Shown in pieces: positions 13,101-51,883 of a DNA stretch of 64,000 nucleotides. The position numbers and the translations under genes were made by a program. The notes under the pieces were generated by a model. That model saw nothing but the letters and a program-made list of their open reading frames with translations. It did no database searches and was not told where the DNA came from. Positions within the stretch are counted from its first letter, which is position 1; each line of letters begins with the position of its first letter. Source of the DNA: a phage; NCBI GenBank assembly GCA_029366385.1, contig GCA_029366385.1_4540.1, one strand, 5' to 3'.

Positions 13101-13352
13101 ATGGCAGGGTATCACATAACAGACATTAAGAAACAACCTTATGGCAGCATAGAAAAGATTAAAGAGGAAGTAGAAGAACTTTTTGATGCTGTTGAGCAGG
13201 ATTGCAAAATAATGCAACTTGTTGAATTGTCAGATATTATAGGGGCTGTCGAGGGAGTTTTAGAACAACAGTTCCCAGATATGACTTTACAAGATTTAAT
13301 CATTATGTCCAACATTACTAAACGCGCTTTCCGCACAGGAGGAAGGTCATGA
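13101..13352 (+). CDS. Putative MazG-like nucleotide pyrophosphohydrolase
   Basis: 83 aa; EKIKEEVEELFDAVE and ELSDIIGAVEGVLEQ resemble the all-alpha NTP-PPase motifs. Confidence 0.45.
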   Translation: MAGYHITDIKKQPYGSIEKIKEEVEELFDAVEQDCKIMQLVELSDIIGAVEGVLEQQFPDMTLQDLIIMSNITKRAFRTGGRS

Positions 13353-13906
13353 ACACAAGTGTGATTGCCGAAGCCATCCAGAGTTATGGACGCTTTGCTG
13401 AAATGTTAGATGTTCCTTATTTAGTGGATGCAGATATTTTGGCATTCACACTGCCACCTGGCAAAGAAGATGCTCCTTTGGGGCATCCTAATGGGAAGTT
13501 TTATGTTGCCAGTGCCGAGCAATCATTCTTGCAAATGGAAAAGGATGGCTACGAGTTTATCGCTGGTCATCCCTACATGGCCCTGACACCATGTTACCGC
13601 ACAGAGGAAGTGTTGGATGATTCTCACTTCAACATCTTCTTGAAGCTGGAGTTGATTGAGTTCTATCCCAGCTTTGGTGAAGTGAAAGAGTATGCCGAAG
13701 AAATGCGATACTTCTTCTGGACCTACTACAAAGTCCAAACAAGAATTGTAGAAACAGAAATAGGGCTTGACGTGGAAGATATGTATGGGTTAGAATTAGG
13801 TTCGTTTGGGATGAGAACTTCTCCACAAGGTCATCCGTATTTATACGCCACTGGTATCGCAGAGCCTAGGGCATCTATTGCAATAAAACGAGGAGGGTTA
13901 TTATGA
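13349..13906 (+). CDS. Hypothetical protein
   Basis: 185-aa ORF. Confidence 0.5.
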   Translation: MNTSVIAEAIQSYGRFAEMLDVPYLVDADILAFTLPPGKEDAPLGHPNGKFYVASAEQSFLQMEKDGYEFIAGHPYMALTPCYRTEEVLDDSHFNIFLKLELIEFYPSFGEVKEYAEEMRYFFWTYYKVQTRIVETEIGLDVEDMYGLELGSFGMRTSPQGHPYLYATGIAEPRASIAIKRGGLL

Positions 13907-15252
13907 ATGTATATACACATAAGCAAGATTTGGTAACAGCGGCAAACAATCGGGGCTTGTTCGATAGGCTTTGCAAAGCTATTGAAATTGCATATGGTTG
14001 GACTAAAGAGACAGATCCTAAACTTACAGGACAATATGCTCTTTTACACGGTTGCACAAATTTTCCATACGTCTGTCACACAGTCGGGACCAATGAATTT
14101 TCTGGAGAGCCGACAGTAGGAGATAATGAGCTACGTTTTACAGGAGATGCAATGCTAGATTTAATTCTTAAGAAAACTAAAATGTTAAAAATTGAAGATG
14201 TTTACACAGACACTGGTAACCTTTCTGAAGAAGAAATTGGAGAAATGATTACTACTTTCAATAATACAACAGGGAAGAGTTTTTGGACTAAAAGCGATGC
14301 TTCCCGTCTTAAACGAGTAGACCCTGCTATTCCAGAAGACGGTAAGAAGTATCGAAAAGTTATCTTTTACGATAAAATGGCAGGTCTGGATGCGCTGCAT
14401 CTTGAGTGTGGAAGCCTTGTGCCTCCGGCTGTCAGAGAACATGAATTTGCAGTTGAGGTTGAAGCACAGGAGTTTAAAGATATGTTTTATACTAAGCATG
14501 TAAGGAAAGTGGAAGATATGGAACAACAAAAAGAGACTTTTGAACCAGAAGACACAGAGCCTACCTATATTCCTAATACAGGTATTCAACCTTGTGAAGA
14601 CTTTGTTCAAGTCCGTTACAAAAATGGTGTTTTAGAAGTATGCAAAGCCAACCACTTTGAATGGGAGAAATACGATAGTGAATGGCAGATTGAAGAATAT
14701 TTTGTTCTCCCAAGAACAGCAAAATACCAAGCCCACATTGGAGGTAAACGCCCTTGTGATGGTCCTGTTGATGTTCTTTTTCGAAATGGGGACCAAGGAA
14801 AAGGTTTGTCGGCAGAGACGCTTTATTGGAGCCACTCTGGAGATGGATCAGACATTGTAGGTTATATTAAACTTAACCCGTCTCCACGTTACCGCAAGCG
14901 TCGTCAGAAGCCGCCAGTAGGTAAGAAGAGTGTCGTTCGTGTCCTCTACACTACACAACAGACCTACACATTTAAAAATGTGGTAGACGTGCAAGTGACT
15001 GAGGAGCGAGTTTATATCCAATATGATCGTGAAGTTACAGAGGGTATCAAAGAATCGGTTACTACCGAAATTGAAAATAAGCTTGTTATGGCGATCATTG
15101 TGGAAGAAAGTAAAGTAGAGAACGGTAAAGCCTACACTGTTCGTGATAGCTTCTTGCGTAATATCGATGGAACTTGGGATTATAATGGACATGATGGGAC
15201 CGCTGTAAAGAACGGTAAGATTATGGGAAGACAATTCCTCTCCAAACAATAA
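13903..15252 (+). CDS. Hypothetical protein
   Basis: 449-aa ORF; antisense track ORFs inside it judged spurious. Confidence 0.55.
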   Translation: MNVYTHKQDLVTAANNRGLFDRLCKAIEIAYGWTKETDPKLTGQYALLHGCTNFPYVCHTVGTNEFSGEPTVGDNELRFTGDAMLDLILKKTKMLKIEDVYTDTGNLSEEEIGEMITTFNNTTGKSFWTKSDASRLKRVDPAIPEDGKKYRKVIFYDKMAGLDALHLECGSLVPPAVREHEFAVEVEAQEFKDMFYTKHVRKVEDMEQQKETFEPEDTEPTYIPNTGIQPCEDFVQVRYKNGVLEVCKANHFEWEKYDSEWQIEEYFVLPRTAKYQAHIGGKRPCDGPVDVLFRNGDQGKGLSAETLYWSHSGDGSDIVGYIKLNPSPRYRKRRQKPPVGKKSVVRVLYTTQQTYTFKNVVDVQVTEERVYIQYDREVTEGIKESVTTEIENKLVMAIIVEESKVENGKAYTVRDSFLRNIDGTWDYNGHDGTAVKNGKIMGRQFLSKQ

Positions 15253-15257
15253 AACTT

Positions 15258-15287
15258 AAAGGCGCACTTTGCGCCTTTTTTGATTTT
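15258..15287 (+). terminator. Rho-independent terminator
   Basis: 8-bp stem AAAGGCGC / GCGCCTTT, loop ACTTT, then T-run; 6 nt after stop of 13903-15252. Confidence 0.6.
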
Positions 15288-17647: not shown

Positions 17648-17839
17648 ATGGTTACATATTTTGCTGTAGGAGATAGAGTAGGGACGGCAGGAGAACTGTT
17701 GAAGAACAGTGATCGGGACGTTAAGGAGATTCTTGCAACCCTTGTGGATATTTTACAAAGAAAAGAGTTGCTTTCTGATCGAGATGTTGCTAAATTACTT
17801 GATATCGGAGGAGATGAACTTCAAAGACTTCCATTTTAA
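17648..17839 (+). CDS. Hypothetical protein
   Basis: Track ORF 17615-17839; ATG 17648 after TAGGAGG. Confidence 0.4.
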   Translation: MVTYFAVGDRVGTAGELLKNSDRDVKEILATLVDILQRKELLSDRDVAKLLDIGGDELQRLPF

Positions 17840-17854
17840 GTGAGGAGATAAGTA

Positions 17855-18460
17855 ATGCAACATAGTGTAGTAGTCAACATGCCGAACAGCGGAGATAAAT
17901 CTTTTGGTGTCCCTGCTAAAAAAGTGTGGAAAGCCCATTTTCATCTTACTTTATCTAACGTTAGTTCTGAAGAGTTGATGAAAGCAGCTAAGATTATTGG
18001 TGCCAAATGCACAACAATTGATTTACATCGGGATACAAAGTCTCAACGTGATCGTATGTTAACAAAGTATCAAAGCGATCTCGACACTACTTTAATGTTG
18101 CAATGTGTAGAAAAACTTGAGAATGCAGGTTTCAATGTTGTTCGTTACAAACTGGAACGAATGTTTAAACATGTTGCCTGTGTTCTTTTCATGGATCTAA
18201 GTAAAGAAAATTATGGAGAAGTTCACATTAAGACTTCAGCAAGTGATCCCGAAGTAGAAACAAACTTCTTCCGTATTTCTTCTAATGCTGAAGAAATTGA
18301 TTACCGATTTTATAATGCTCGCTTATATTCCGCAGAAGATAAGTTGCGTTTCAATGAAGCGTATGATATGCTCTTGAACAGTGGGATACAGATAAAAGGC
18401 TACCACATAGAACAAGTTGTGGTAGACAGTAACTTAAATCTTGATGCGTGGTGGGCCTAA
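17855..18460 (+). CDS. Hypothetical protein
   Basis: 201-aa ORF with RBS; contains HFHLTL but no second H-x-T/S motif. Confidence 0.5.
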   Translation: MQHSVVVNMPNSGDKSFGVPAKKVWKAHFHLTLSNVSSEELMKAAKIIGAKCTTIDLHRDTKSQRDRMLTKYQSDLDTTLMLQCVEKLENAGFNVVRYKLERMFKHVACVLFMDLSKENYGEVHIKTSASDPEVETNFFRISSNAEEIDYRFYNARLYSAEDKLRFNEAYDMLLNSGIQIKGYHIEQVVVDSNLNLDAWWA

Positions 18461-18461
18461 T

Positions 18462-19118
18462 ATGACAATAAAACATATCTCTTTTGATGTATGGAACACT
18501 CTTATTTCTGCCAATCAAAACTATGCAGATGCACGTACGCACACTATTGCGACATATGGTAGAATGTCTGAACGTGCCGCAAAAGAAGCATATAAAGATG
18601 CCAAAGAAATTATGGATAATGCTGCACTAAATGGGTGTGCAGAAGGTGTAGCATATGCATGGAATATGTTGGGAAGAAAAATAGGTTTAACCCCTGTAGA
18701 ATCTGCACAAATGCGTTTTGAGTGTGAACAATGGTTTCTTAAATTTCCTCCACATATTGCTTTAGATTTGCCAGTTTGTTTGCTATACTTGTCTGGTAAA
18801 TATGATCTTAGTATTAAAAGCAATACTAATTTTATATCTGGAGATATTTTGCGTCGTGCTTGCATGTTTGATAGTTGGAATTGTTTTGAATTTATGCATT
18901 TTTCAGACGAACATCTGTTGTGTAAACCAGATCCTAGATTCTTTGTTAGGACCGCCACATATTCAAGCATTCCTTTGAAGGCTGAAGAGATCTTACATGT
19001 TGGGGACAGCGAAGAATTTGATGGTAAATGTGTTGACATAGGGATTAACTTCTGTCATATTAAGAACCCTAACGATTTACTAGAGAAACTTAAAAGAGGA
19101 GAAATTGTAAATGCGTAA
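18462..19118 (+). CDS. HAD-superfamily-like hydrolase
   Basis: Track ORF 18441-19118 taken from ATG 18462; motif I-like ISFDVWNTL and motif IV-like LHVGDSEEFD. Confidence 0.45.
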   Translation: MTIKHISFDVWNTLISANQNYADARTHTIATYGRMSERAAKEAYKDAKEIMDNAALNGCAEGVAYAWNMLGRKIGLTPVESAQMRFECEQWFLKFPPHIALDLPVCLLYLSGKYDLSIKSNTNFISGDILRRACMFDSWNCFEFMHFSDEHLLCKPDPRFFVRTATYSSIPLKAEEILHVGDSEEFDGKCVDIGINFCHIKNPNDLLEKLKRGEIVNA

Positions 19119-19938
19119 TCAAACTCAAATTTTTGCAAATAAATTTGATGCCCTGGAAACTGCTACTTTTGATATCAAAGATTATTCAAAATTGAAATTT
19201 GGTAGTAACCAAGCTGCGCGTCGTATGGGTAAAGAATTGGCACTTCAGTTTTTTGCTCAAGTAGCAATGAAACATATTGGGGAACAATTTGTTATCATTC
19301 CTTCTCCTTATAACCATGTGCATAATGCTGCAACAATGATGACAGATCATTTTATTAATTACTTTAATATGTTACAAGCACAATATGATCAAGGTCGTTC
19401 AGCAGAACTGGATATTATTCATCGTAAAGTTAGCTATATCAACGATTATGGTTTCTTGGATAAAGCTAGTCGTAAGAAACTTATTGATGGGGATACATTC
19501 TACTGCAACAAAGAATTCTGGGGTGATAAGAAGCTTGTGTTCATTGATGATGTAAATATCACTGGAACTCATGAAGACAAACTGATTGAGATTCTTGATG
19601 AAAATCAAGTTAAAAATGATGTTTACTTCTTGTATTTTGCAAAATATGAAGGTAATCAAGCAGATACCGAAGCTAAGCTGAATTTTAACTATATTAATAC
19701 ACCAGAAGCGTTTGTTAAAATGATTAATGAAGAATGTGATGCACAGTGTCTTGTTCGTCCTATTAAGTATCTTATGGGCCAAAATCATGAAGACTTCAAA
19801 ATCATTCTTAGCCAATTGCCACACTACTATGTGGAACAACTTTTCTTCGGCTGTTTAGCTGAAGGCTACAATCGAATTGCAAAGTATGCTGAAAACTTTG
19901 AGTTCTTGGATCGTTACACAAAACAACATATTCTGTAA
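19111..19938 (+). CDS. Phosphoribosyltransferase (type I PRTase fold)
   Basis: 275 aa; PRPP-binding signature KKLVFIDDVNITGTHED. Confidence 0.55.
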   Translation: MRNQTQIFANKFDALETATFDIKDYSKLKFGSNQAARRMGKELALQFFAQVAMKHIGEQFVIIPSPYNHVHNAATMMTDHFINYFNMLQAQYDQGRSAELDIIHRKVSYINDYGFLDKASRKKLIDGDTFYCNKEFWGDKKLVFIDDVNITGTHEDKLIEILDENQVKNDVYFLYFAKYEGNQADTEAKLNFNYINTPEAFVKMINEECDAQCLVRPIKYLMGQNHEDFKIILSQLPHYYVEQLFFGCLAEGYNRIAKYAENFEFLDRYTKQHIL

Positions 19939-19947
19939 GGAGGAAAA

Positions 19948-20421
19948 ATGTTGAAGGTTGTTACTGGGAATCTGATCGATGCAGCGAAGAATGGGGAAGT
20001 GAACGTTATTGCTCATTGTTGCAATTGTATGTGTAATATGGGGGCAGGAATTGCTCCGCAAATTAAACGAGCATTCCCTTATGCATATGCGGCAGATTTA
20101 GACACAATGGCTGGTGATCAAAGTAAGTTAGGTTCTTTTAGTTTAGGGGTGCCAGACGAACAATCAGACCCTTTGGTATATAATCTATACGGGCAATACC
20201 GTTACGGATATAATGCTAAAGGTCGTCAGTTGGACTATGATGCCCTATACGATGCACTAATAGCTATGGCTAACGATTTGCTTCTCCGTGACCAAAAATG
20301 TAAGATCGGTTTACCTATGATTGGAGCGGGACATGCCGGAGGTAATTGGGCTATCATCCAAGTGATGATTGAAGAAACTTTAGTAAAAACAGGTCACGAT
20401 GTGACTATTTATAAACTTTAA
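19948..20421 (+). CDS. Macro-domain protein, TARG1/OARD1-like
   Basis: 157 aa; VIAHCCNCMCNMGAGIAPQIKRAFP aligns with human TARG1 [24 protein letters not shown], and IGLPMIGAG..VTIYKL with MPRIGCG..ITVYTL (recalled sequence). Confidence 0.75.
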   Translation: MLKVVTGNLIDAAKNGEVNVIAHCCNCMCNMGAGIAPQIKRAFPYAYAADLDTMAGDQSKLGSFSLGVPDEQSDPLVYNLYGQYRYGYNAKGRQLDYDALYDALIAMANDLLLRDQKCKIGLPMIGAGHAGGNWAIIQVMIEETLVKTGHDVTIYKL

Positions 20422-20433
20422 GAGGAGATTAGT

Positions 20434-20655
20434 ATGGGTGTTTTTGCAGGTATTGTTGCAGTGGTAAGCTTTTTTGTTATTGCTTTTATGCTTAGTTTGA
20501 TTCCAGCTTGGTTACTGTTGCTGGCTTACAACTATGTTGCTGAAGTTATGGGTCATGCAGATATCACTGTCCCAGTAACCTTCTGGACCGTGGTTTGTGT
20601 TTCGTTTATTCTGGCGGTATTACGAGGAATCTTTTCCTCTCATTCAACAAAATAA
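20434..20655 (+). CDS. Small membrane protein
   Basis: 73 aa, two hydrophobic segments. Confidence 0.45.
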   Translation: MGVFAGIVAVVSFFVIAFMLSLIPAWLLLLAYNYVAEVMGHADITVPVTFWTVVCVSFILAVLRGIFSSHSTK

Positions 20656-20658
20656 GTG

Positions 20659-20686
20659 TTGACATAGTTCTTAAAAAGAGTAAGAT
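20659..20686 (+). promoter_or_regulatory. Putative promoter TTGACA-N16-TAAGAT upstream of terC
   Basis: Same -35/-10 hexamers and spacing as the 6359 promoter. Confidence 0.45.
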
Positions 20687-20698
20687 ATATCACATGAA

Positions 20699-20717
20699 GC
20701 GGGGAATAGTTCCCCGC
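20699..20717 (+). promoter_or_regulatory. Leader stem-loop upstream of terC
   Basis: Perfect 8-bp stem GCGGGGAA / TTCCCCGC with loop TAG, between the -10 and the RBS GAGAGGAG. Confidence 0.35.
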
Positions 20718-20734
20718 AAAGAGAGGAGAAAAGA

Positions 20735-21709
20735 ATGCAACTCGGTTTCCCAATTATTGATGTAGTTGTTTTAGTTGGTATTTTAGCATTGTCTATTGGT
20801 ATCGATTTCTTTGGTCATAAAGAGAATAAAGAAATTGGAATTAAATCTGCTTTGCTTTGGTCTGTTTTTTGGATTGCTTTAGCTTTAGGATATTACGCAT
20901 TCATTTGGGTAGAACATGGTAAAGAGTTTGCCGCGCTTTTCCTAAGTGGCTATGTGTTGGAAAAGAGTCTTTCTGTAGATAACCTAATGGTGTTCATGGC
21001 AATTTTTGCAAGCTTTGGAATTAAGAGCACACATCTCCAACATAAGATTTTACTTTGGGGGATTGCAGGAGCCATTGTCTTCCGAGGTATTTTTGTTGCA
21101 GCAGGAACAGCTTTATTTAACCTGCATTGGTCGGTCCAAGTGCTGTTCGGTCTGATTGTAGCTTGGTCTGCCGTTGCTATTATCAAAGGTGGTGACGAAG
21201 AAGAGGATATCGATTACTCTAAACATTGGGCTGTTCGTTTAGTAGGTAAAATCCTGCCTGTGCACAATGCACTGGATGGTGAAAAGTTCATTACCATTAA
21301 GAATGGTATTAAATATGCAACTCCTGCTCTTCTTTGTGTGTTTGTTATTGAGCTTACAGATATTGTCTTCTCTTTTGATTCAGTTCCGGCTGTGATCGGT
21401 GTGACACAAGAACCTCTGCTAGTTTATTCTGCAATGCTGATGGCTGTTCTTGGTTTACGTGCACTTTTCTTTGTGTTAAGTGTAGCTGTGAAATATTTGG
21501 TTCACTTAGAGAAAGCTGTTGCTGTGGTTCTGGTGTTTGTTGGTGCTAAACTTATGTATCATCCGTTCGGTGAAACACTTCATGCCAAGTGGTCATTCCT
21601 CCCGCATGATATTTCCCCTAACGTAAGTCTGATGATTGTTCTAGGCACATTAGCTCTTGGTGTTATTGCAAGCTTTATCTTCCCTGAAAAAGAAGAAGCT
21701 ACTGTTTAA
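20735..21709 (+). CDS. terC: TerC-family integral membrane protein
   Basis: 324 aa, multiple TM helices; motifs EKSLSVDNLMVF and TDIVFSFDSVPAV. Confidence 0.8.
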   Translation: MQLGFPIIDVVVLVGILALSIGIDFFGHKENKEIGIKSALLWSVFWIALALGYYAFIWVEHGKEFAALFLSGYVLEKSLSVDNLMVFMAIFASFGIKSTHLQHKILLWGIAGAIVFRGIFVAAGTALFNLHWSVQVLFGLIVAWSAVAIIKGGDEEEDIDYSKHWAVRLVGKILPVHNALDGEKFITIKNGIKYATPALLCVFVIELTDIVFSFDSVPAVIGVTQEPLLVYSAMLMAVLGLRALFFVLSVAVKYLVHLEKAVAVVLVFVGAKLMYHPFGETLHAKWSFLPHDISPNVSLMIVLGTLALGVIASFIFPEKEEATV

Positions 21710-21715
21710 TAGATG

Positions 21716-21740
21716 AGCCTCCTTCGGGAGGCTATTTTAT
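21716..21740 (+). terminator. Rho-independent terminator (UUCG loop)
   Basis: Stem AGCCTCC / GGAGGCT, loop TTCG, then ATTTTAT. Confidence 0.55.
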
Positions 21741-21751
21741 AGGAGAGACTT

Positions 21752-22102
21752 ATGAGTAATTTTGATGAAATTCAAAAACTTGTTTGGGATTTACCTGGGG
21801 ATGTTGATTACGTTTCAGATTATCTTTCAAAAGTTTACCCTGGGGTAAGCGTTATGATTGTGACCAAAGATCCAATTAACCTTCCTCCTAACGTAGTAGC
21901 TTGTTGTGGAAGTGGTTCAGGAGAGGTAGAACCTGTATCTCGTTGGGAATTAACCAAAGCTGTTTCAAAACGAAACGGCGAAGTTTTGAATATTGATATC
22001 GAACAAATCTGGACTTCTCCAGCCGCCAAGTGGAATGATCCTAATGGTTGGGATTTGTTCTTCTGGGATAATGAAACTGATGATGAGGTATTTTTAAAAT
22101 GA
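21752..22102 (+). CDS. Hypothetical protein
   Basis: 116-aa ORF with AGGAGAG RBS. Confidence 0.5.
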   Translation: MSNFDEIQKLVWDLPGDVDYVSDYLSKVYPGVSVMIVTKDPINLPPNVVACCGSGSGEVEPVSRWELTKAVSKRNGEVLNIDIEQIWTSPAAKWNDPNGWDLFFWDNETDDEVFLK

Positions 22103-22344
22103 AATACTTGTTGGTTGTGTTTGAAAATATTTGTTTTGCAATAGGGTTGTTTGTTGTAATTTTTGTATTGACAAGCGTAATCAACGGCAGTAAAGTGAGT
22201 TTATACCGAGATGGAGAGCAACTTTATTGCTTCTCTGGAGATTTCAAACACAGATGTATTAATAGCCAAAACGAGGAAAGCAAATATGAAAAAACTAGCC
22301 CTGATTTTAATTGGTTGTATCTTTTTAACAGCTTGCGAGGATGA
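22099..22344 (+). CDS. Possible small membrane protein
   Basis: 81-aa ORF with ATGA overlap, but its 3' end overlaps the lipoprotein gene by about 59 nt. Confidence 0.3.
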   Translation: MKYLLVVFENICFAIGLFVVIFVLTSVINGSKVSLYRDGEQLYCFSGDFKHRCINSQNEESKYEKTSPDFNWLYLFNSLRG

Positions 22345-22723
22345 AACAAATCCCGCACAATACCAACAACCTCCTCAACAATACGCTCAACAAGGATCTG
22401 ACGGAGATACAACTATTATCAACAATGGTGGCGGTTCTAGTAGTAGCGGTGTTGGTGAGTTTGCTACAGGTATGTTGTTAGGGCATATGATGAGTGGCGG
22501 TAGTAATCGTAGCAGTGGGGATTATAACGATAACAGAACGATTATTAATAAGCATTATAATACACCTAAACCGAAAACTAATTTTTATGGTAAGCCTAAA
22601 CAAGAGATAAAAACTTATGAAAAGCCGAGACAAACTTTTAAAACAAATAGTAGCTATACAACTCGTAAATCTTACAATAGCCCTTTAAGTAAAAAGAGTT
22701 CATCTCGTAGCAAGCGACGTTAA
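22286..22723 (+). CDS. Putative lipoprotein (Gly/Ser-rich, basic C-terminus)
   Basis: Track ORF 22211-22723 taken from ATG 22286 after GAGGAAAG; lipobox-like LILIGCIFLTAC. Confidence 0.55.
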   Translation: MKKLALILIGCIFLTACEDETNPAQYQQPPQQYAQQGSDGDTTIINNGGGSSSSGVGEFATGMLLGHMMSGGSNRSSGDYNDNRTIINKHYNTPKPKTNFYGKPKQEIKTYEKPRQTFKTNSSYTTRKSYNSPLSKKSSSRSKRR

Positions 22724-22737
22724 TAAGGAGAAAAACA

Positions 22738-23331
22738 ATGACAATTTCTATTCGTACTTCCATCGTAGGTGTTAAAAGGTTGCCTAATGCTTTGCAAATC
22801 ACACGCGCTTTGAGGGATACATTCTCTGCTGTGGACGAGCATAAGATGCTTGATAATCTTTCAAATTGGCCCTATTTCCATTATTTTAAAAATGAAGATG
22901 ACGAGTTTATAGACGCTGTTTCTTATGGTTATGATTTCGGTAAGGAGGTTTCTGCTGAAGAATTTGTAGCTATGGTGTTCCCAAACGGTTTGCCTACTCG
23001 CAGTAAACGTAAAAAAGGACCAAAAAACAAGAAACGTGCTACTAATAAAGCTACCATTTTCTTTACTGATGGCACACAATATACTATTAAAGATTTTGAA
23101 GAGGTATCTTATACAGCAGGTGGGAATCTTTCTTTCTACACCATCAAAAAACAAAACTCTACGTTCAGCCATGTTTCTAACATGATTGAAATGTTAGTAG
23201 AAGATATTGAAAGCGTGGCTGTGTTAGGTATGCATAAAAGCTTTTTAATTACAAATATTTCAGATTTCAGTGCAAGTTTATCTGGCCCTGATTTTGAAGC
23301 CACGACCACGCATTTCGCTTTTAAGGTGTAA
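22738..23331 (+). CDS. Hypothetical protein
   Basis: 197-aa ORF. Confidence 0.5.
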   Translation: MTISIRTSIVGVKRLPNALQITRALRDTFSAVDEHKMLDNLSNWPYFHYFKNEDDEFIDAVSYGYDFGKEVSAEEFVAMVFPNGLPTRSKRKKGPKNKKRATNKATIFFTDGTQYTIKDFEEVSYTAGGNLSFYTIKKQNSTFSHVSNMIEMLVEDIESVAVLGMHKSFLITNISDFSASLSGPDFEATTTHFAFKV

Positions 23332-23334
23332 GTT

Positions 23335-23925
23335 ATGCATACCGAGAGAGACTTGCAACTCTTGTGGTGGGAAGTGATGCAGGAAATAAAAGAAGATTTT
23401 CCTGTTTACTACAACATGTTACATGAAGCAGGATATAAAGCTTGTGTTAGAAACAAAGTGAATAACTCTTTCGGTTGGTGCAACTACCGAGATAAAATTG
23501 TTGTTGTAAATTGGCACTTGCATAAGAACTCCACAAGAGATATGATCGTGGATACAATGAAGCACGAAATTGCTCATGCTATTGATGGTTGTATGGGTAA
23601 GTTTAGTAGACACGGTGCTCATTGGCAAAAACTGGCAGCAGAGTTAGGGGCTAATCCTAAAGCCACTTCCAAAGAGCCGTTGAACCACGAATATAAATAT
23701 GTTCTTGTTCTGGTAGATAGGTTTGCGACAAGATGTGTTAGAGGTTATAATCGTAAACCTAATCGCATGTACCCAGGTAAGCAACCTAATATGTGGTTGA
23801 AATCAGATAAAGAAGGGACCGAAGGAAAATTATGGTTGTATAAATGGGACGATTGGGTTAAAGTAGCTAAAGAGTACGGTGTTTCACCATATATAAGAGA
23901 TGCAGAAGAGGAGAATGAAGAATGA
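23335..23925 (+). CDS. SprT-like zinc metallopeptidase domain protein
   Basis: 196 aa; HEIAHAI (HExxH) followed by HGAHWQ. Confidence 0.6.
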   Translation: MHTERDLQLLWWEVMQEIKEDFPVYYNMLHEAGYKACVRNKVNNSFGWCNYRDKIVVVNWHLHKNSTRDMIVDTMKHEIAHAIDGCMGKFSRHGAHWQKLAAELGANPKATSKEPLNHEYKYVLVLVDRFATRCVRGYNRKPNRMYPGKQPNMWLKSDKEGTEGKLWLYKWDDWVKVAKEYGVSPYIRDAEEENEE

Positions 23926-25034
23926 CAAGTCCATTTTTAAAAGCAGCTACTGGCGGTCAGAAGAAACCTGAAATGAGCGTATTTGCTGCAACAACAGATG
24001 CAAGTAAATCTGTATTCGCTCCAAGCGTGTTAGATGCCAGTCCTGTTTATGCACCAGCGGCACCGCAAGAAGTTCCAGTTTTGCCTTCTATGACCCGACA
24101 AGAGATCGAAGAGATTGGGGCAGAGGCAGGAACAACCTTGCGTTCCTTGAATGCCGAGGTATTAAAACATCAACGTAGTAATCAAGGCGATCAGATGAGT
24201 GAACGACTCACAGCTTTGATTAAACAGGCAAAACAACTTGATCCAAACTCTATTAAACAAAGCAAGGGTATTACTAAACTCATTAAAAAAGTTATGGGTA
24301 TGAAAGAAGATCTGTTTGGGGAGTTTGATAATGTTAATAACCGTATTGAAGAGTTGGTAAAAAACCTTCAAATGGATATTCGCAAAGAAGAAGATTCCTT
24401 GGTATATCTTGAAAAGCTACATCAAGCTATTGGACAATATGCTGCAAGTTTGAACCGAGATATGCAGCTTCTAACAGCAACCTATGAAAAAGAAGAACAA
24501 GCTTTGGCTGCTCTTCCAGAAGATGCAGTAGAACAGCGACAAGTGATCCGAGACACTTTGGATCTTCTGGAGATTCGTATTGCAGATTTAAAAGCATTGC
24601 GCCTACTGTGTGTCCAAATGGGACCGCGTGTACAAGGTATGCAAAAAGTTTCTGCAAGCTTAATGCGATCTGCGCGTAACATAGTAAATAATGTTATTCC
24701 TGCTTACTCTGCTAACTTCTCAATGTATATCGAGAGCTTACGTCAAATGAAAGCAGCAGAGACGCAGAATAACGTTCTTGATGAATTTAACCTAGCAATT
24801 AAACTGGGTAGCGATCTTGCCACACAGAATCAGATCGAAGCAGCAGCACTGGCTAACCGTCAAGTGTTGGATATTGAAACTCTGCGTCACGATCAGGAAA
24901 ACTTGGTTAAGATGTTGGAAGAAACTAACCGCATCAATACGGAAGCCCGTGCTGCTCGTGTTGATTATATTAATGAAGTTCAATCTCTGGAAGACGGGAT
25001 GGTAGCTGCTGTGAAACGAGGGCTTGGTAAATGA
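23922..25034 (+). CDS. Putative TelA-like (toxic anion resistance family) protein
   Basis: 370 aa, long helical protein; resemblance to TelA is from recalled pattern only. Confidence 0.4.
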   Translation: MTSPFLKAATGGQKKPEMSVFAATTDASKSVFAPSVLDASPVYAPAAPQEVPVLPSMTRQEIEEIGAEAGTTLRSLNAEVLKHQRSNQGDQMSERLTALIKQAKQLDPNSIKQSKGITKLIKKVMGMKEDLFGEFDNVNNRIEELVKNLQMDIRKEEDSLVYLEKLHQAIGQYAASLNRDMQLLTATYEKEEQALAALPEDAVEQRQVIRDTLDLLEIRIADLKALRLLCVQMGPRVQGMQKVSASLMRSARNIVNNVIPAYSANFSMYIESLRQMKAAETQNNVLDEFNLAIKLGSDLATQNQIEAAALANRQVLDIETLRHDQENLVKMLEETNRINTEARAARVDYINEVQSLEDGMVAAVKRGLGK

Positions 25035-25228
25035 GAATCCGTATCTATATAATTGATGAGGACATTGGTGTCCGTTATGATGACGAAAAACGATTCGCGC
25101 CGATGGGAGGCATATATCCCCCAAGTGTTCTAGCAGTTTGTCGTGATTGTTATATTTATGAAGGTTGTCGTAACTTCCGTAAATTCGAACTCCTTGCAGA
25201 TATTGACTTCAATGAGGAGGAGGAGTAA
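25031..25228 (+). CDS. Hypothetical protein
   Basis: 65-aa ORF. Confidence 0.4.
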   Translation: MRIRIYIIDEDIGVRYDDEKRFAPMGGIYPPSVLAVCRDCYIYEGCRNFRKFELLADIDFNEEEE

Positions 25229-25401
25229 TGAAAATATTACGAGTGAATATTGAAACTGCTTGGTGTGGATGCAATGAGGTTGTGGATATCGAAATTGAAG
25301 ATGATATGTCTCAAGAGGATATAGAAGATCTTGCACACGAAACCTTTCAGGACTATTGTAATTACGGGTTCCATATTTTAGAGGAGGAAGAGGATGTTTA
25401 A
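25228..25401 (+). CDS. Small acidic protein (57 aa)
   Basis: Unlisted ORF; TAATG overlap upstream, overlaps next start. Confidence 0.4.
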   Translation: MKILRVNIETAWCGCNEVVDIEIEDDMSQEDIEDLAHETFQDYCNYGFHILEEEEDV

Positions 25402-25597
25402 CTACGATAACGACCCTAATATTATCCAGTTAACCCGACAAGAACTGATCACAATCATTGAAGATGCTTTTATTGATGGCTGGAATACACAAGACAATGA
25501 TTGGGGTGGACCCGAAGCTTTTCTGGAACATCATAAAGCTTATGGAGAATTTTGTGAAACCACTGTAGCTCTTGATAATCTGAAGGAGGGTTTGTAA
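25394..25597 (+). CDS. Hypothetical protein
   Basis: 67-aa ORF. Confidence 0.45.
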   Translation: MFNYDNDPNIIQLTRQELITIIEDAFIDGWNTQDNDWGGPEAFLEHHKAYGEFCETTVALDNLKEGL

Positions 25598-26160
25598 TGG
25601 GTTGTTTTAGCTTTTTGTGCAAAGAATCGGGCAAAGCTGCCCTTTCTACTTCTTTCGACGGATCACCTTGTTATCTCTTTCTTTTGAAGGACGGTGTTGT
25701 TATTGAAGAGATGTATGGCAACTATGATAGTTATGGTTGTGTTTTCTCTGGAAAGGAGGATGAAAATGGCGTTCGTGAAAGGTTCGAATGGGCTATGGAT
25801 TGGGGTAAGGTTTGTGATTTAATGCATTCCTCAAATCCAAGGGACGGTATTGCTATGGTGCTGGAAGAGTACTTTACAGGTGAAATCCCTACAGAACAAT
25901 CTGACGGAGATCCTAACCAAGGTTGGGGTGATGGTGAAGAAGATCCAGATTGTTTTTTCAGCACAGAAAAGAATAAGTTTAAACGTGTTGACAACCCTTA
26001 TCACAAAGTGCATAATACTCTCATTGAAACAGAAGATGACAAGATGGAAATTGAAGAAGATGATCCTCTTGTAACACTTCCTATAAGTGAGTTACAAAAG
26101 ATCACTAAGGAAGCTTACGATTTGGGCTTCAAAATTGGTAGAGGAGGTATGCGTGTTTAG
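25597..26160 (+). CDS. Hypothetical acidic protein
   Basis: 187-aa ORF. Confidence 0.5.
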   Translation: MGCFSFLCKESGKAALSTSFDGSPCYLFLLKDGVVIEEMYGNYDSYGCVFSGKEDENGVRERFEWAMDWGKVCDLMHSSNPRDGIAMVLEEYFTGEIPTEQSDGDPNQGWGDGEEDPDCFFSTEKNKFKRVDNPYHKVHNTLIETEDDKMEIEEDDPLVTLPISELQKITKEAYDLGFKIGRGGMRV

Positions 26161-26431
26161 ATTCAATATTCAAGAAGAAAAGTATCAAGATTTACCTATT
26201 GCTTTCGAAGATCTTGGCATAGGGGCCACATTCATGTATTATGATGCCTATGAAGACGCAGGGTTGGATACCTACCGTAACTTGGTGTTCATTAAAAATT
26301 CCACAAACAGTGCGATCTGTATTAATGGATCACTAGCACAACGAGGCTATACTCATTGCATCCCGCCAGATACAAATATGGTGGAAGTAGATTTAGAAGT
26401 TACCAATATTACACTTAAGAAGGAGAAATAA
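26153..26431 (+). CDS. Small protein, paralog A of 27453-27722
   Basis: Track ORF 26087-26431 taken from GTG 26153 after GAGGAGG; shares F-I-E.K...I.DL..G.TF.Y..A.....LD ... EV.L.VT.ITLK with 27453-27722. Confidence 0.5.
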   Translation: MFRFNIQEEKYQDLPIAFEDLGIGATFMYYDAYEDAGLDTYRNLVFIKNSTNSAICINGSLAQRGYTHCIPPDTNMVEVDLEVTNITLKKEK

Positions 26432-26432
26432 T

Positions 26433-27227
26433 ATGTCCGAGAAAATCAGCCTGAAAAAACGTCAAGAAAACCTTGCTTTCTCTCTGAAAAAGAATAAGAA
26501 CCTGAATGAAGGTAAGATTGTTCTTCGTGTAGCATGTGCTCTAGATATTTCTGGTAGTATGCATGGTCTATATTCTAGTGGGGTAGTAAGTGATTTTGTA
26601 GGTAAACTGCTTCCTTTTGGTATGTTGTTCGACGATAATGAACAAATTGACATGTGGGCCTTCAATACGAGTTCTCAAGAGCTTACTCCAGCAACAGCAG
26701 ACGTTTACGATGACTATGTTGGTAAATGTATGCGTAATATTCGTATTGGAGGTGGAACAAATTACGCCCCTGTAATGGCAGATATCTACGATGAGTATTT
26801 TGGCACTGTTACCAAATATGTTACCACTAAACAAGTGGTACAAGAGGAGGCTCCAAAGAAAGGCTTCTTTAATCGTCTGCTTGGTAAAACTGAAACAGTA
26901 TCTGTAGAGCGTGAAAAGGTTGTAGCTGTATCTGAACCAGGTGCTGACGTTACCCCTGGTGTTGTATTCTTCCAGACGGATGGTGAGAATGGTGATCCTA
27001 GTGCTGTTCGTCGTCTTATTGAAGAGAATAAGAATAAGCCTATCTATTGGTTCATGGTTGGCGTTGGTAATGAGAAGTTCAGCTTCCTGAAAGAACTGGC
27101 AAATGCTTATGATAATGTTGGTTTTATTGGCATTAAAGATTTAGACTTGACAGATTCAGAGCTTTATGACAAACTCTTATCTGAAGAGTTCGGAGAGTGG
27201 GTTGTTAAAGTAGGTGCTAAAAAATGA
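26433..27227 (+). CDS. von Willebrand factor A (vWA) domain protein, TerY-like, with TerD-like N-terminal segment
   Basis: 264 aa; MIDAS-type ALDISGSM; N-terminus MSEKISLKK resembles the TerD N-terminus. Confidence 0.65.
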   Translation: MSEKISLKKRQENLAFSLKKNKNLNEGKIVLRVACALDISGSMHGLYSSGVVSDFVGKLLPFGMLFDDNEQIDMWAFNTSSQELTPATADVYDDYVGKCMRNIRIGGGTNYAPVMADIYDEYFGTVTKYVTTKQVVQEEAPKKGFFNRLLGKTETVSVEREKVVAVSEPGADVTPGVVFFQTDGENGDPSAVRRLIEENKNKPIYWFMVGVGNEKFSFLKELANAYDNVGFIGIKDLDLTDSELYDKLLSEEFGEWVVKVGAKK

Positions 27228-27472
27228 TCGACGAGCTTGCCTCTCAAGTCGTAGAAAATTATTGGCGCGAGAGAGAAGCTTTCATTATGCGCAGTCTCAA
27301 AGAATATTTCATTGGGACTGTGCGGATGGAAGATATTGTAAGTAGAGTAGAGATTCATGTATGGCCTGATTATGAAGAATGGGTTGACAAAGAAAATGAA
27401 AATGCTATAATTCTTCGTATATACAAACCGGAGATAACATTAGGAGGAAGAAGTGTTAAACTTCGAAATTGA
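27224..27472 (+). CDS. Hypothetical protein
   Basis: 82-aa ORF. Confidence 0.45.
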   Translation: MIDELASQVVENYWREREAFIMRSLKEYFIGTVRMEDIVSRVEIHVWPDYEEWVDKENENAIILRIYKPEITLGGRSVKLRN

Positions 27473-27722
27473 TGAGCAAAAAATAAATAAACGATGCCTT
27501 ACCATTAAAGATTTGGATGTAGGAGATACTTTCGTCTATGAAAATGCATTTGACGAAAATGGTTTAGACCTTAGTGAAGTCATTGTTTATTTAAAAGTAG
27601 ATGATGGGGAAAATGATTATTCTGCTGTAGAACTAAACCATCATGCACAATTAGTAGCAATCCAAAACACATCTAAGCTTTTGGAAGTAGAATTGACTGT
27701 AACTGGTATTACACTTAAATAA
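27453..27722 (+). CDS. Small protein, paralog B of 26153-26431
   Basis: 89 aa, GTG start after AGGAGG. Confidence 0.5.
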   Translation: MLNFEIDEQKINKRCLTIKDLDVGDTFVYENAFDENGLDLSEVIVYLKVDDGENDYSAVELNHHAQLVAIQNTSKLLEVELTVTGITLK

Positions 27723-27737
27723 TAGAGGAGACAAAAG

Positions 27738-28340
27738 ATGACTGATAAAATTTCCCTGAAAAAAGGCTCTAGCGAAAAAATTTCCCTGAAGAAAGTTGCT
27801 CCGGCTCTGAAAGAACTGCGCCTGGAATTCTCTTGGAAATCTGATTCTAAACTGGATCTGGATGTAAGTGCACTGGTTTGTCGTCACAATGCCGCTGGCA
27901 ATCCGGAAATGCTGTCTGCACGTCATCTGGTTTGCTATGCTAACAAGTTTGATCCTGAACGTTCTACCTTCGCTGGTGACGATGTTCGTGATGGAACTGG
28001 CAGCATGGAGCAGATTGATATTACTCTGGCTAAAATCTCTCCTGATGCACAAGAGATTGCCTTTGTTCTGACCATTGATGATGATACAGGTCTGAAACGT
28101 TTTGGTCATGCTTCTGAAGGTATGCTTAAAATCTTCGACTCCGAGCGCAATGTGGAAATTCTGGATTTTGACTTCCTGGCTCCTGAAGTAGCTGGCAACA
28201 CAATCTGCCACGTGGCTTCCTTGGTTCGTGAAGATGGGGAATGGAAACTGAAAGCATATGGTGTAGGTAAAGCTGGTCTGGATATTTGCGATGTGGTGAT
28301 GGCCTTCGGTGGTAAAAAAGAATGGTATGAATGTCCATAA
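27738..28340 (+). CDS. terD: TerD-domain stress protein
   Basis: 200 aa; aligns by eye with enterobacterial TerD (ISLKKG..ISLKK, FVLTIDD, DGEWKLKAYGVGKAGL); CTG/CGT/GGT-rich codon usage. Confidence 0.85.
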   Translation: MTDKISLKKGSSEKISLKKVAPALKELRLEFSWKSDSKLDLDVSALVCRHNAAGNPEMLSARHLVCYANKFDPERSTFAGDDVRDGTGSMEQIDITLAKISPDAQEIAFVLTIDDDTGLKRFGHASEGMLKIFDSERNVEILDFDFLAPEVAGNTICHVASLVREDGEWKLKAYGVGKAGLDICDVVMAFGGKKEWYECP

Positions 28341-29659: not shown

Positions 29660-30223
29660 ATGATTTATTATATTACTCCCTATCTGACAGGAAATATCGG
29701 CAAGGCTATCAATGAAGCTATTGCCGTTCTTCCAGATGATAGTTGGGTGTGCTTAAGAGATACCGATACAATGTTCCTCCTGCCTGATCAACCATCTATG
29801 CTTGAAGAGCTTGTTATGTCAAACCCGCCTTTTGATGTAATAGGTGCAACTTGTAACAGGTTAGGTAGTGGTTATCAGCTTTTCTCTAACCAAATTAACG
29901 ATGATCCAGATATTCTAAACCATATAGAATATGCTAAGATTGCAAGAGAATATCATAAAGTGAGTGTTGAAGAAGTTCCTTTCGGAACACCTCTGGCAGG
30001 TTTCTTTTTGCTTTTTAGAAAATCATTGTGGAATGAAATTCCTTTCGAAGAAAAATCTATCCAATTCGACTTAATTTTCTCTCGCACTTTACATGAAAAA
30101 GGAAAGAGGTTAGGATTGATGCGGGGAATGTATCTGTTTCACATTTACAGATTAGGTCAAACAAATCCTCAACGGTCTATACATCATTTATTACACTGTC
30201 ACGATCACAGTAAAACTATTTAG
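29660..30223 (+). CDS. Putative glycosyltransferase (GT-A-like)
   Basis: 187 aa; N-terminal ITPYLTGNIGKAINEAIAVL ... CLRDTDTMF resembles GT-A nucleotide-sugar binding region. Confidence 0.4.
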   Translation: MIYYITPYLTGNIGKAINEAIAVLPDDSWVCLRDTDTMFLLPDQPSMLEELVMSNPPFDVIGATCNRLGSGYQLFSNQINDDPDILNHIEYAKIAREYHKVSVEEVPFGTPLAGFFLLFRKSLWNEIPFEEKSIQFDLIFSRTLHEKGKRLGLMRGMYLFHIYRLGQTNPQRSIHHLLHCHDHSKTI

Positions 30224-30231
30224 GAGAGAAA

Positions 30232-31852: not shown

Positions 31853-31859
31853 GTGAAGT

Positions 31860-51881: not shown

Positions 51882-51883
51882 TT

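Follow-up and report, generated by a model that had tools for sequence, protein, structure and literature searches.

A paired HAD hydrolase and PRTase_3 phosphoribosyltransferase near Ter genes, and an adjoining AdfM/Adpp-like macro domain, in an Escherichia coli Phapecoctavirus

A biosynthetic module of the Ter clusters, combining a phosphoribosyltransferase (PRTase) with a HAD-fold hydrolase, was reportedly predicted by Anantharaman, Iyer & Aravind in 2012. For phages, a Ter-associated PRTase + HAD module with a 'nucleoside-like metabolite' has been described (Iyer et al. 2021, PMC7824862). The PRTase domain of the competence protein ComF/ComFC (PDB 7p0h) is among the closest known systems to phage PRTases of the PRTase_3 family, and our literature search found no experiment on any PRTase_3 member or its HAD partner. 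For phage macro domains, knockout of T4 Tk.4/AdfM sensitises T4 to DarTG2, the mechanism being deduced from genetics (preprint, bioRxiv 10.1101/2025.11.20.689424), while Adpp of Vibrio phage Gary, purified, is an ADPR-1''-phosphate phosphatase (preprint, bioRxiv 10.64898/2026.01.28.702374) and is encoded between Adps and Namat in the NARP1-AP operons of Vibrio phages (bioRxiv 10.64898/2026.01.28.702374). Bas63, the NARP1 model phage, is a Felixounavirus and not a relative of the phage studied here. The macro protein SCO6735 has been shown biochemically to cleave thymidine-ADPr DNA, with Q85 and N27 as essential residues (PMC9411070).

Layout of the region

We analysed a 64,000-nucleotide stretch of phage DNA (the window), which belongs to an E. 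coli Phapecoctavirus with 98% identity to phage ESCO13. The first-pass annotation had described three consecutive genes for a HAD-like protein, a type I PRTase and a macro domain, and both their coordinates and their domain assignments were borne out (open reading frames, Pfam matches and a readable PRTase motif). The genes are tightly packed on the + strand (Table 1), the PRTase gene overlapping the HAD gene by 8 nt and the macro gene following after a gap of 9 nt; the list of open reading frames puts the HAD start further upstream, at a TTG at 18441. Since each of the three proteins is conserved in phage records that number from dozens to thousands, the trio consists of real genes and not of chance open reading frames. 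The AbiEi-like protein that precedes them is treated here as a neighbour of the HAD-PRTase pair.

Two terminator-like hairpins, found in promoter and terminator scans that report consensus matches only, bracket a gene block running from NrdD to TerC. The trio, a small predicted membrane protein and TerC all lie within this bracket, separated by gaps of 2-12 nt, so that co-expression of the pair with the macro gene is likely; given such co-expression, some coupling of the macro protein to the pair may be conceivable.

Table 1 Features of the analysed region, with positions counted from the first nucleotide of the window
Feature	Position	Strand	Length	Remarks
Second terminator-like hairpin	15258-15278			Consensus scan match only
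AbiEi-like protein	17855..18460	+	201 aa	Directly upstream of HAD, 2-nt gap; matches PADLOC 'AbiEi' models end to end
HAD-fold hydrolase	18462..19118	+	218 aa	ATG start
PRTase_3 ('ComF-like') type I phosphoribosyltransferase	19111..19938	+	275 aa	Pfam PF15610
Stand-alone macro domain	19948..20421	+	157 aa	TARG1/DarG/SCO6735/Poa1p-like class (phage AdfM/Adpp family)
Predicted membrane protein	20434..20655	+	73 aa	Between macro and TerC; hydrophobic sequence; PHROG 16065
TerC/Alx-family integral membrane protein	20735..21709	+		Pfam TerC E 3.6e-40; NCBIfam TIGR03718 319 bits, cutoff 246.4
Terminator-like hairpin	21716..21733	+		Just 3' of TerC; consensus scan match only
SprT-like metalloprotease	23335-23925			Pfam SprT-like E 5e-9; end overlaps TelA start by 4 nt
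TelA-like protein	23922..25034	+		Pfam TelA E 3.2e-33
vWA-TerF-like protein	26433..27227	+		Pfam PF10138 E 4.6e-37
TerD-domain protein	27738..28340	+		Pfam TerD E 3.2e-28

The HAD-PRTase_3 pair

Loci from phages, Rhizobiaceae replicons and Bacteroidota MAG contigs were grouped into lineages at <70% PRTase identity, and in all of these lineages (21/21), at every locus examined, HAD lies immediately upstream of PRTase_3. Moreover, each of the two families occurs in 157 of 50,697 phage records with an identical organism breakdown, and the two are fused into one protein in the metagenomic relatives P0173, P0197, P0277 and P0171. Judged by gene order and fusion, HAD and PRTase_3 are an obligate two-enzyme module, of which the window holds a minimal version with one PRTase and one HAD, unlike the tandem PRTase fusions found in some relatives.

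The PRTase matches the Pfam PRTase_3 profile over positions 15-264 of 264 with 141.5 bits (cutoff 28.7). The motif quoted in the first-pass annotation was found at residues 143-155 (VFIDDVNITGTHE), and the PRPP loop reads D146-D147-V-N-I-T-G-T-H-E, in keeping with a DDVxITGTHE loop that is invariant in the PRTase_3 family. The predicted structure (pLDDT 92.8) has a type I fold, with a PRPP-binding loop (two acidic residues, a hydrophobic stretch and T-G-T) on a Rossmann-like PRTase core, followed by a C-terminal helical domain (about residues 186-275) with no counterpart among solved structures. Among the comparisons that had been proposed, the one with PRPP synthetase/Adps showed distant resemblance at most. 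Pfam Pribosyltran gave no match, and PDB sequences searched by phmmer and by profile returned PRPP-loop matches only (E 0.3-2.5). A housekeeping salvage PRTase (HGPRT, APRT, OPRT or UPRT) was rejected for lack of any Pribosyltran/UPRTase match and of any significant match to a solved enzyme, and a NARP enzyme was rejected on the type I fold and the lack of a match to the type II NAMPT/Namat. Public records label the PRTase 'orotate phosphoribosyltransferase' and the macro gene 'phosphatase'.

The HAD protein of the window scores 19.7 bits against Pfam Hydrolase, below the cutoff of 26.4, which its orthologues and PRTase-fused relatives exceed, and it gives partial NCBIfam HAD-IA matches. The nucleophile Asp, the Ser/Thr, the Lys and the acidic motif IV of the superfamily are all present: in the family alignment, motif I is D9-V-W11-N-T13, and motifs II (S120/N121), III (K155) and IV (G181-D182...D187) are conserved across the family. 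The second Asp of DxDx(T/V) is absent; the family motif is DxWxT, with Trp11 in the window protein, and each of the 22 aligned family members, like each of five fused proteins, has Trp or Tyr at Asp+2. An FDVWNTL motif is common to this protein and PDB 2om6 (PH0253, uncharacterised), and the Trp/Tyr at Asp+2 is reminiscent of 2-haloacid dehalogenases, whose motif is DxYGT. Asp+2 is the general acid/base position of HAD phosphatases; because Trp or Tyr occupies it here, the label 'phosphatase' is not secure and, in a more radical variant, a HAD lacking this residue could carry out chemistry other than dephosphorylation.

The macro-domain protein

The macro protein scores 23.0 bits against Pfam Macro (cutoff 22), matches the PADLOC DarG model (E 7e-11) and PHROG 335 (194 bits), and finds PDB entries 5e3b, 2fg1, 5m31 and 4j5r. 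Its proposed collinearity with human TARG1 held (query 18-157 to chain 21-146, E 2e-6), but SCO6735, BT1257 and DarG outscore TARG1, and SCO6735 (PDB 5e3b) is the best PDB sequence match (E 9e-13). Among the key residues N26, Q83, G126/G128/G132 and A130, Q83 aligns with TARG1 K84, DarG K80 and SCO6735 Q85, and A130 with TARG1 D125; the catalytic Lys84/Asp125 dyad of TARG1 is absent, Gln83 and Ala130 standing at the aligned positions. The protein agrees with SCO6735 in three features: Gln in place of the catalytic Lys, Asn in the CN motif and a longer 'mobile loop'. Its Q83 and N26 correspond to Q85 and N27 of that enzyme, and the loop is 5 residues longer than in TARG1. C25, N26, Q83 and G126 are invariant in an alignment of the macro proteins of the window phage, Gary, Quinn, T4 and three other phages. 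The two observations on which the first-pass annotation would have withdrawn its proposal, a firm housekeeping grouping of the PRTase and a macro domain lacking catalytic residues, were thus not made, the SCO6735-type Gln/Asn constellation taking the place of Lys84/Asp125. Identity with the DarG antitoxin was rejected (37.6 bits where the NCBIfam cutoff is 250, covering model positions 2-147 of 338 only), and the protein differs from DarG in having Gln instead of Lys80, no C-terminal DarT-binding domain and no DarT neighbour.

The three genes had been read as one module, but the macro gene stands outside the conserved unit. Its family occurs in 2,986 phage records, compared with 157 for the pair, and about 95% of the macro's phage records lack the HAD-PRTase pair; in only four of the 21 lineages is it found within 10 kb of the pair, and the two adjoin each other only in two Stephanstirmvirinae sub-lineages. 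In lineages L012 and L013 extra genes separate PRTase from macro (a MazG reading of the 188-aa insert was rejected, Pfam support being weak at E 0.036), and the best 150 PRTase_3 relatives include no macro fusion. The 73-aa membrane protein keeps its position in lineages L010-L015. Judged by these distributions, the trio is two units, a HAD-PRTase_3 pair and an unrelated, widespread phage macro enzyme.

The closest characterised homologue of this enzyme is the Adpp of Vibrio phage Gary (42% identity over the full length, E 4e-37), with T4 Tk.4/AdfM more distant (34% identity, E 7e-22). Like AdfM, it is a stand-alone phage macro domain of ~155 aa in PHROG 335 with a C-N...Q...G-x-G constellation, and no NARP1 was found in the phage. 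Unlike Adpp, it has PRTase_3 and the 73-aa membrane protein as neighbours, and the window has no Adps and Namat within two genes of it, the arrangement by which NARP1-AP is recognised. Because macro, Adpp and AdfM have similar pairwise identities (34-42%) and identical key residues, the activities of Adpp and AdfM are not separable by sequence. Membership in the AdfM/Adpp family of phage hydrolases that process ADP-ribose, with a putative role as a counter-defence enzyme, is the best explanation of these data. Our best guess, by comparison with T4 AdfM and SCO6735, is that the protein would remove DarT2-type thymidine-linked ADP-ribose from phage DNA; dephosphorylation of ADPR-1''-phosphate, as by Adpp, may be a second and non-exclusive activity.

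The macro protein alone might instead clear ADP-ribose 1''-phosphate or 1'',2''-cyclic phosphate arising from phage RNA repair, the role of Poa1p, with no countering of immunity. Its family is annotated as Poa1p-like, its relative Adpp dephosphorylates ADPR-1P, genes for Sir2-like proteins, RNA ligase 1 and a metallophosphatase are present in the phage, and such a role has been proposed for the sirtuins of rV5-type phages (PMC9503650). However, those Sir2-like, ligase and metallophosphatase genes lie 50-100 kb from macro, the rV5-type sirtuins are not macro-linked (PMC9503650), and the T4 homologue AdfM has a defence-specific phenotype, and we consider this RNA-repair role unlikely.

Ter linkage and readings of the locus

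TerC, TelA, vWA-TerF and TerD, all above their Pfam cutoffs, lie within 20735-28340, <9 kb downstream of the pair, and vWA-TerF homologues adjoin HAD-PRTase_3 in other lineages too. Within 10 kb of the pair, TerD was found in 10, TerC in 9, vWA-TerF in 6-9 and TelA in 5 of the 21 lineages, and the linkage, which recurs in about half of them, extends over jumbo phages, myoviruses of about 150 kb and Bacteroidota contigs. TerD itself is present in 149 phage records, whose organism breakdown nearly matches that of HAD and PRTase_3. In about half of the lineages, the Rhizobiaceae plasmid copies among them, Ter genes are absent within 10 kb of the pair; since the pair is found in such settings, the module can work without Ter.

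The window thus resembles the published Ter metabolite module in its PRTase_3 enzyme, its HAD partner and its nearby TerC/TelA/vWA-TerF/TerD genes, and differs from it in the Trp at Asp+2 of the HAD and in that some copies of the pair have no Ter genes close by. The first-pass annotation had offered two interpretations, each of which survived for a different part of the trio. The biosynthetic arm of the Ter module was upheld for HAD and PRTase by PRTase_3 membership and the recurrent Ter linkage, and fell away for the macro gene; the NAD/ADP-ribose route found no backing from the PRTase (no PRPP synthetase/Adps, NAMPT/Namat or NARP1 match) and was retained for macro through its AdfM/Adpp homology.

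We infer that the most likely reaction of the PRTase is transfer of the 5-phosphoribosyl group from PRPP to a nucleophile, and that the HAD would then process the product, classically by removal of the 5'-phosphate, to a nucleoside-like small molecule, although the Trp at Asp+2 weakens this putative phosphatase step. The metabolite may serve as a signal or ligand of the Ter apparatus (TerC, TelA, vWA-TerF, TerD), which fits the published model, and could possibly be used against competing phages or envelope stress. That both halves hold, a pair making a Ter-linked metabolite and a separate counter-defence macro protein, is in our estimate somewhat better than an even chance. In a bolder and doubtful version, the DxWxT-HAD and PRTase_3 would make a novel ribosylated small molecule, either the postulated Ter ligand or an independent phage-made effector, and the block, with its macro and AbiEi-like proteins, could in this phage subfamily act as a compact counter-defence island.

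The pair lies directly downstream of NrdD/NrdG in the window, and similar surroundings elsewhere (ribonucleotide reductase in L002, thymidine kinase in L008, DHFR and PurA in Rhizobium phage TM61, dCTP deaminase/dUTPase and another PRTase in L006), together with the Ter-free copies of several lineages and of Rhizobiaceae plasmids, would suit a nucleotide-pool function, either in salvage or in shaping the precursors for phage DNA synthesis, with the Ter linkage reflecting shared early-gene neighbourhoods of large phages. We regard this as quite unlikely: the sequence of the PRTase shows no affinity to a salvage PRTase, linkage to Ter genes recurs across unrelated phage types in about half of the lineages, and dephosphorylating a fresh nucleotide would be wasteful for DNA synthesis.

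It is very doubtful that all three genes form the Ter biosynthetic arm, with macro trimming or maturing an intermediate that contains ADP-ribose or ribose-1''-phosphate. Macro does lie between the pair and TerC in one terminator-bracketed block, and the order pair-macro-TerC is kept across Phapecoctavirus, phi92-like and Klebsiella-phage relatives; yet no macro gene adjoins the pair in the other Ter-containing lineages (L002, L003, L006, L021, L022, L025, L047 and L048), the macro gene of L020 is 6 kb away, fusions to PRTase_3 are lacking as noted above, and the macro family has documented Ter-independent roles.

A single NAD+/ADP-ribose salvage or reconstitution route, replacing NARP1 or NARP2 non-orthologously, in which macro would supply ADP-ribose (from ADPR-1''P or adducts) and PRTase and HAD would rebuild a pyridine nucleotide, could draw on the likeness of macro to the Adpp of NARP1-AP operons (42% identity), the tight packing and probable co-transcription of the trio, PnuC and a NadR-like AAA_28 protein in L002, only a few genes away, a NadM/Nudix gene at a similar distance from the pair in TM61 and Sir2-like genes elsewhere in the phage, but is highly improbable, given a type I PRTase with no Namat/NAMPT similarity and only distant similarity to PRPP synthetase/Adps, a cluster with no pyrophosphokinase or adenylyltransferase, no Adps/Namat homologue in the window or in the rest of a Phapecoctavirus genome, pairs that lack macro in 17 of 21 lineages and macro genes that mostly lack the pair, and a phosphatase-type step after the PRTase that would destroy NMN rather than build NAD+.

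Returning to the two-unit reading, separating the macro gene from the pair prevents mis-annotation of the kind seen in the public labels of both, and suggests for a gene carried by about 6% of sequenced phages a counter-defence role, against DarTG2 or aRES, that can be tested. Of the 'biosynthetic' arm of Ter clusters (tellurite resistance / phage inhibition) predicted in 2012, the family of the window phage presents the simplest putative form, with one PRTase, one HAD and a minimal TerC/TelA/TerF/TerD set in a culturable E. coli phage, and would thus offer a practical system for metabolomics and knock-outs.

Gene layout and source phage

The first-pass annotation had placed a HAD hydrolase, a phosphoribosyltransferase (PRTase) and a macro domain in consecutive genes at 18462-20421, and three plus-strand open reading frames were confirmed there. 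The surrounding 17800-25100 matched dozens of Escherichia Phapecoctavirus phages over its full length at 95-98% identity. In public records of this genus (Stephanstirmvirinae; ESCO13, phAPEC8 and relatives, genomes of ~150 kb) the three genes are labelled 'hydrolase', 'hypothetical protein' or 'putative orotate phosphoribosyltransferase', and 'phosphatase' or 'macro domain-containing protein', respectively. Near-identical gene copies were present in MG065639, MG065689 and OP562383, filed as 'Campylobacter phage' or 'Acinetobacter phage vB_AbaM_ABPW7'; either the stated hosts are in error, as is probable, or there was contamination of the samples.

Features in the window and, in the last row, in compared loci
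Feature	Position	Strand	Remarks
terminator-like hairpin	15258-15278		before NrdD; sequence scan
201-aa protein	17855-18460	+	directly upstream of HAD gene; PADLOC 'AbiEi' models
HAD-fold hydrolase	18462-19118	+	ATG at 18462 per public annotations; mechanical ORF opens at TTG 18441
PRTase	19111-19938	+	8-nt overlap with HAD gene; Pfam PF15610
macro	19948-20421	+	9 nt after PRTase gene; Pfam Macro
73-aa membrane protein	between macro gene and TerC	+	predicted
TerC/Alx	20735-21709	+	downstream of 73-aa gene
terminator-like hairpin	21716-21733		after TerC; sequence scan
SprT-like zinc metalloprotease	starts 23335, overlaps TelA start	+	gene before TelA
TelA	23922-25034	+	downstream of SprT-like gene
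vWA-TerF	26433-27227	+	downstream of TelA
TerD	27738-28340	+	downstream of vWA-TerF
YqeY/GatB-like	L002:8810-9262, L008:17473-17907, L011:3715-4149, L013:3587-4021, L015:4005-4439, L021:8825-9268, L022:875-1276, L025:13311-13748		PF09424

Gaps from the 201-aa gene through HAD, PRTase and macro to the 73-aa gene measured 2, -8, 9 and 12 nt, and TerC is preceded by a 79-nt gap that contains a promoter-like site. The trio is likely co-transcribed, which in phage genomes is weak evidence of common function. Farther upstream, two genes before NrdD (13349-15252), named 'histidyl tRNA synthetase' and 'ribonucleotide reductase' in RefSeq ESCO13, had zero Pfam matches, and these names look unreliable.

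The HAD-fold hydrolase and PRTase_3 act as one unit

The PRTase matched Pfam PF15610 (PRTase_3, 'PRTase ComF-like') from end to end (141.5 bits, cutoff 28.7), and the motif quoted in the first-pass annotation was borne out within residues 143-155, VFIDDVNITGTHE. Across 32 aligned relatives (45-79% identity), SPYN..NA, RKxSYxxDYGFL, DDVxITGTHE, RPxK and E-x-Y were invariant; the AlphaFold model was confident (pLDDT 92.8, pTM 0.89), and the family profile found only sub-threshold PRPP-loop matches among all PDB sequences (E 0.3-2.5). Thus, the protein is a type I PRTase that has diverged but kept its PRPP loop intact; its C-terminal ~90 residues are helical, without structural match. It is neither an Adps-like pyrophosphokinase nor a type II enzyme of the Namat/Nampt kind, and it does not belong with the housekeeping salvage enzymes, a grouping that the first-pass annotation had named as one that would count against its reading.

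Its partner scored 19.7 bits against Pfam Hydrolase, under the 26.4 cutoff, with partial NCBIfam HAD-IA matches. The family alignment placed the nucleophile at D9, motif II at S120/N121, motif III at K155 and motif IV at G181-D182...D187, and the sole PDB sequence match was the uncharacterised PH0253 (2om6), with the same FDVWNTL motif. In HAD phosphatases the Asp+2 residue is the general acid/base, and it is substituted in dehalogenases (DxYGT). This position is Trp here, Trp or Tyr in every aligned relative (DxW/YxT), and Trp or Tyr in HAD-PRTase fusion proteins too; no earlier mention of this family-wide loss was found in the sources consulted. Retention of GDxxxD in motif IV speaks for Mg2+ binding and for phosphoryl chemistry, though, with Asp+2 replaced, 'phosphatase' can stand as a putative label only. 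Within Phapecoctavirus (records such as phAPEC8, NC_020079) the PRTase was 97-100% conserved, and the HAD protein fell into two classes with ~100% or ~77% identity to the window copy, a split suggestive of mosaic replacement at this gene.

Loci were gathered from contigs retrieved by exact protein look-up, 16 IMG/VR loci, annotated phage records and 15 GTDB-genome loci, and the HAD gene lay immediately 5' of the PRTase in every one examined (phmmer and BLAST clustering). Defined at <70% PRTase identity, 21 lineages spanned T4-like and jumbo phages, Caulobacter, Brevundimonas, Xanthomonas and Rhizobium phages, Bacteroidota MAG contigs and Rhizobium/Sinorhizobium/Ensifer replicons. Each protein was detected by tblastn in 157 phage records out of 50,697, and the organism breakdown was the same for both. 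When 1.84 billion representative proteins were searched with a profile, 836 PRTase_3 relatives emerged; among the best 150, ~13 were 486-544 aa long with PRTase_3 in the C-terminal half, tandem PRTase fusions also occurred, and none carried a macro fusion. Pfam confirmed an N-terminal HAD domain in the metagenomic proteins P0173, P0197 and P0277, and a PRTase-HAD-PRTase_3 arrangement in P0171. Gene order, co-occurrence and fusion together show that HAD and PRTase_3 act as one unit, a conserved, sometimes fused two-enzyme module frequently accompanied by Ter genes.

Ter genes and other neighbours of the pair

Downstream of the pair, the window carries the macro gene, the 73-aa gene and TerC/Alx, then SprT-like, TelA, vWA-TerF and TerD genes. 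Unsupervised clustering of all genes within 10 kb of the pair recovered TerD in 10 of the 21 lineages, TerC in 9, vWA-TerF in 6 (9 by phmmer), TelA in 5, YqeY in 6, macro in 4 and RNA ligase in 3. TerD occurred in 149 phage records, with an organism breakdown near that of the pair, minus Rhizobium phages. Since about half of the lineages have the pair without a Ter gene in view, Ter is a frequent partner, not an obligatory one. On Rhizobium johnstonii plasmid pRL10 (L049, record 107669-109142) the pair stands alone beside repA; there and on the other Rhizobium/Sinorhizobium/Ensifer replicons (L035-L046) the pair occurs at ~40% identity, and no Ter genes were detected within 10 kb. Rhizobiaceae-type replicons are a bacterial (plasmid) reservoir akin to the Rhizobium phage copies.

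A Ter-linked PRTase and HAD module was already described for phages by Iyer et al. (PMC7824862). The proposal that the trio forms the biosynthetic arm of a Ter module is therefore a published model, which genomic context supports for the HAD and PRTase genes and not for the macro gene, given its separate distribution. A literature search turned up no experiments on the PRTase/HAD arm, whether of phages or of bacteria.

Several other neighbours were recorded. The YqeY/GatB-like gene recurred within 10 kb as often as vWA-TerF or TelA, and was not found at that distance in the window (9-30 kb searched). Two other lineages have NAD-related genes a few positions downstream of the pair: a PnuC transporter plus a NadR-like AAA_28 protein in one (L002:11029-12612), and a NadM/Nudix gene in Rhizobium phage TM61 (L029:5857-6420). 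The SprT-like gene and TelA overlap by 4 nt, a translational coupling; this pairing is retained in L013 and L014 and missing from L011, L012 and L015. After TerD and an endolysin-like gene come four consecutive glycosyltransferase-like genes (29660-32804) with weak Pfam Glyco_trans_1 and TAGT matches; in an unrelated 153-kb contig (L022), three of the four are again found close to HAD-PRTase_3 and to Ter genes.

The macro domain and its substrate

The macro protein narrowly passed the Pfam Macro cutoff (23.0 bits, cutoff 22). Its collinearity with TARG1 held (query 18-157, E 2e-6), with better scores for SCO6735 (5e3b, E 9e-13), BT1257 and Thermus DarG; PADLOC DarG also matched (E 7e-11). By tblastn it occurred in 2,986 phage records, ~19 times the pair's count, including T-even, rV5-like, FelixO1-like, PB1-like and many other phages, and it adjoins the pair only in two Stephanstirmvirinae sub-lineages. 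The macro domain is a separate matter from the pair. One or two extra genes separate PRTase and macro in Klebsiella-phage-like loci: a 188-aa insert with a weak MazG-type pyrophosphohydrolase signature (L012:4024-4590, L013:9505-10071; Pfam E 0.036) and, in L013, an additional 127-aa ORF. L020 and L008 each have a distant macro homologue, 6-8 kb away from the pair.

Two PADLOC 'AbiEi' antitoxin models matched the 201-aa protein along their full length (E 5e-13), but neither Pfam nor NCBIfam gave a match, and comparison of its fold gave nothing informative; its gene is absent from phi92-like relatives (L011, L015). A possible reading is an orphan, antitoxin-like gene with a counter-defence role; together with the DarG-like macro, two putative orphan antitoxin-like genes then flank the pair.

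Among phage proteins, the macro shares 34% identity with T4 Tk.4 (E 7e-22), renamed AdfM, whose knockout makes T4 sensitive to DarTG2 (2025 preprint, bioRxiv 10.1101/2025.11.20.689424), and 42% with Adpp of Vibrio phage Gary (E 4e-37); these two are 35% identical to each other. Adpp, whose gene sits between those of Adps and Namat, was shown to be an ADPR-1''-phosphate phosphatase, and enables the NAD reconstitution pathway NARP1 to overcome aRES defence (2026 preprint, bioRxiv 10.64898/2026.01.28.702374). The operon recurs in Vibrio phage Quinn. C25-N26, Q83 and the Gly-rich loop are common to the window macro, AdfM, Adpp and aligned phage relatives. Q83 aligns with TARG1 Lys84, DarG Lys80 and SCO6735 Gln85, and A130 occupies the TARG1 Asp125 position. 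SCO6735 has no Lys/Asp dyad, requires Gln85 and Asn27, cuts DarT-made thymidine-linked ADP-ribose from DNA and protects against DarT (PMC9411070). The macro thus lacks the TARG1 catalytic residues but keeps the SCO6735-like Gln/Asn constellation of an active subclass. The loss of catalytic residues that the first-pass annotation had named as a ground for refutation therefore does not apply in substance; the macro is a member of the newly characterised AdfM/Adpp counter-defence family.

The search for Adps and Namat homologues came up empty in the window, and also in ESCO13 1-74 kb and DE16 140-151 kb, which between them span the rest of a Phapecoctavirus genome; Adpp's role inside NARP1-AP cannot apply as such here. 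T4 likewise has no NARP1, and its family member acts against DarTG2. On these grounds we tentatively favour, at somewhat under even chances, removal of DarT2-type DNA ADP-ribosylation by the macro. Hydrolysis of ADPR-1''-phosphate, for counter-defence or clearance of RNA-repair by-products, is a rather unlikely second choice; comparison of macro relatives does not separate the two activities, which may coexist in this class. Sir2-like proteins, RNA ligase 1 and a metallophosphatase are encoded outside the window (ESCO13 record 19719-20850, 51441-52926; L031, L032) and might supply the enzyme with ADP-ribose derivatives. A joint NAD-salvage pathway of the whole trio, as also proposed, is very improbable; its counter-defence element survives for the macro.

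The original observation was correct, and its reading must be split between pair and macro. The kinds of protein are known, and the Ter-linked HAD-PRTase_3 module, a prior computational prediction, gains a further case in this phage; the loss of Asp+2 throughout the HAD partner's family is, as far as the sources consulted go, a fresh point, and the pair's chemistry is now easily testable.
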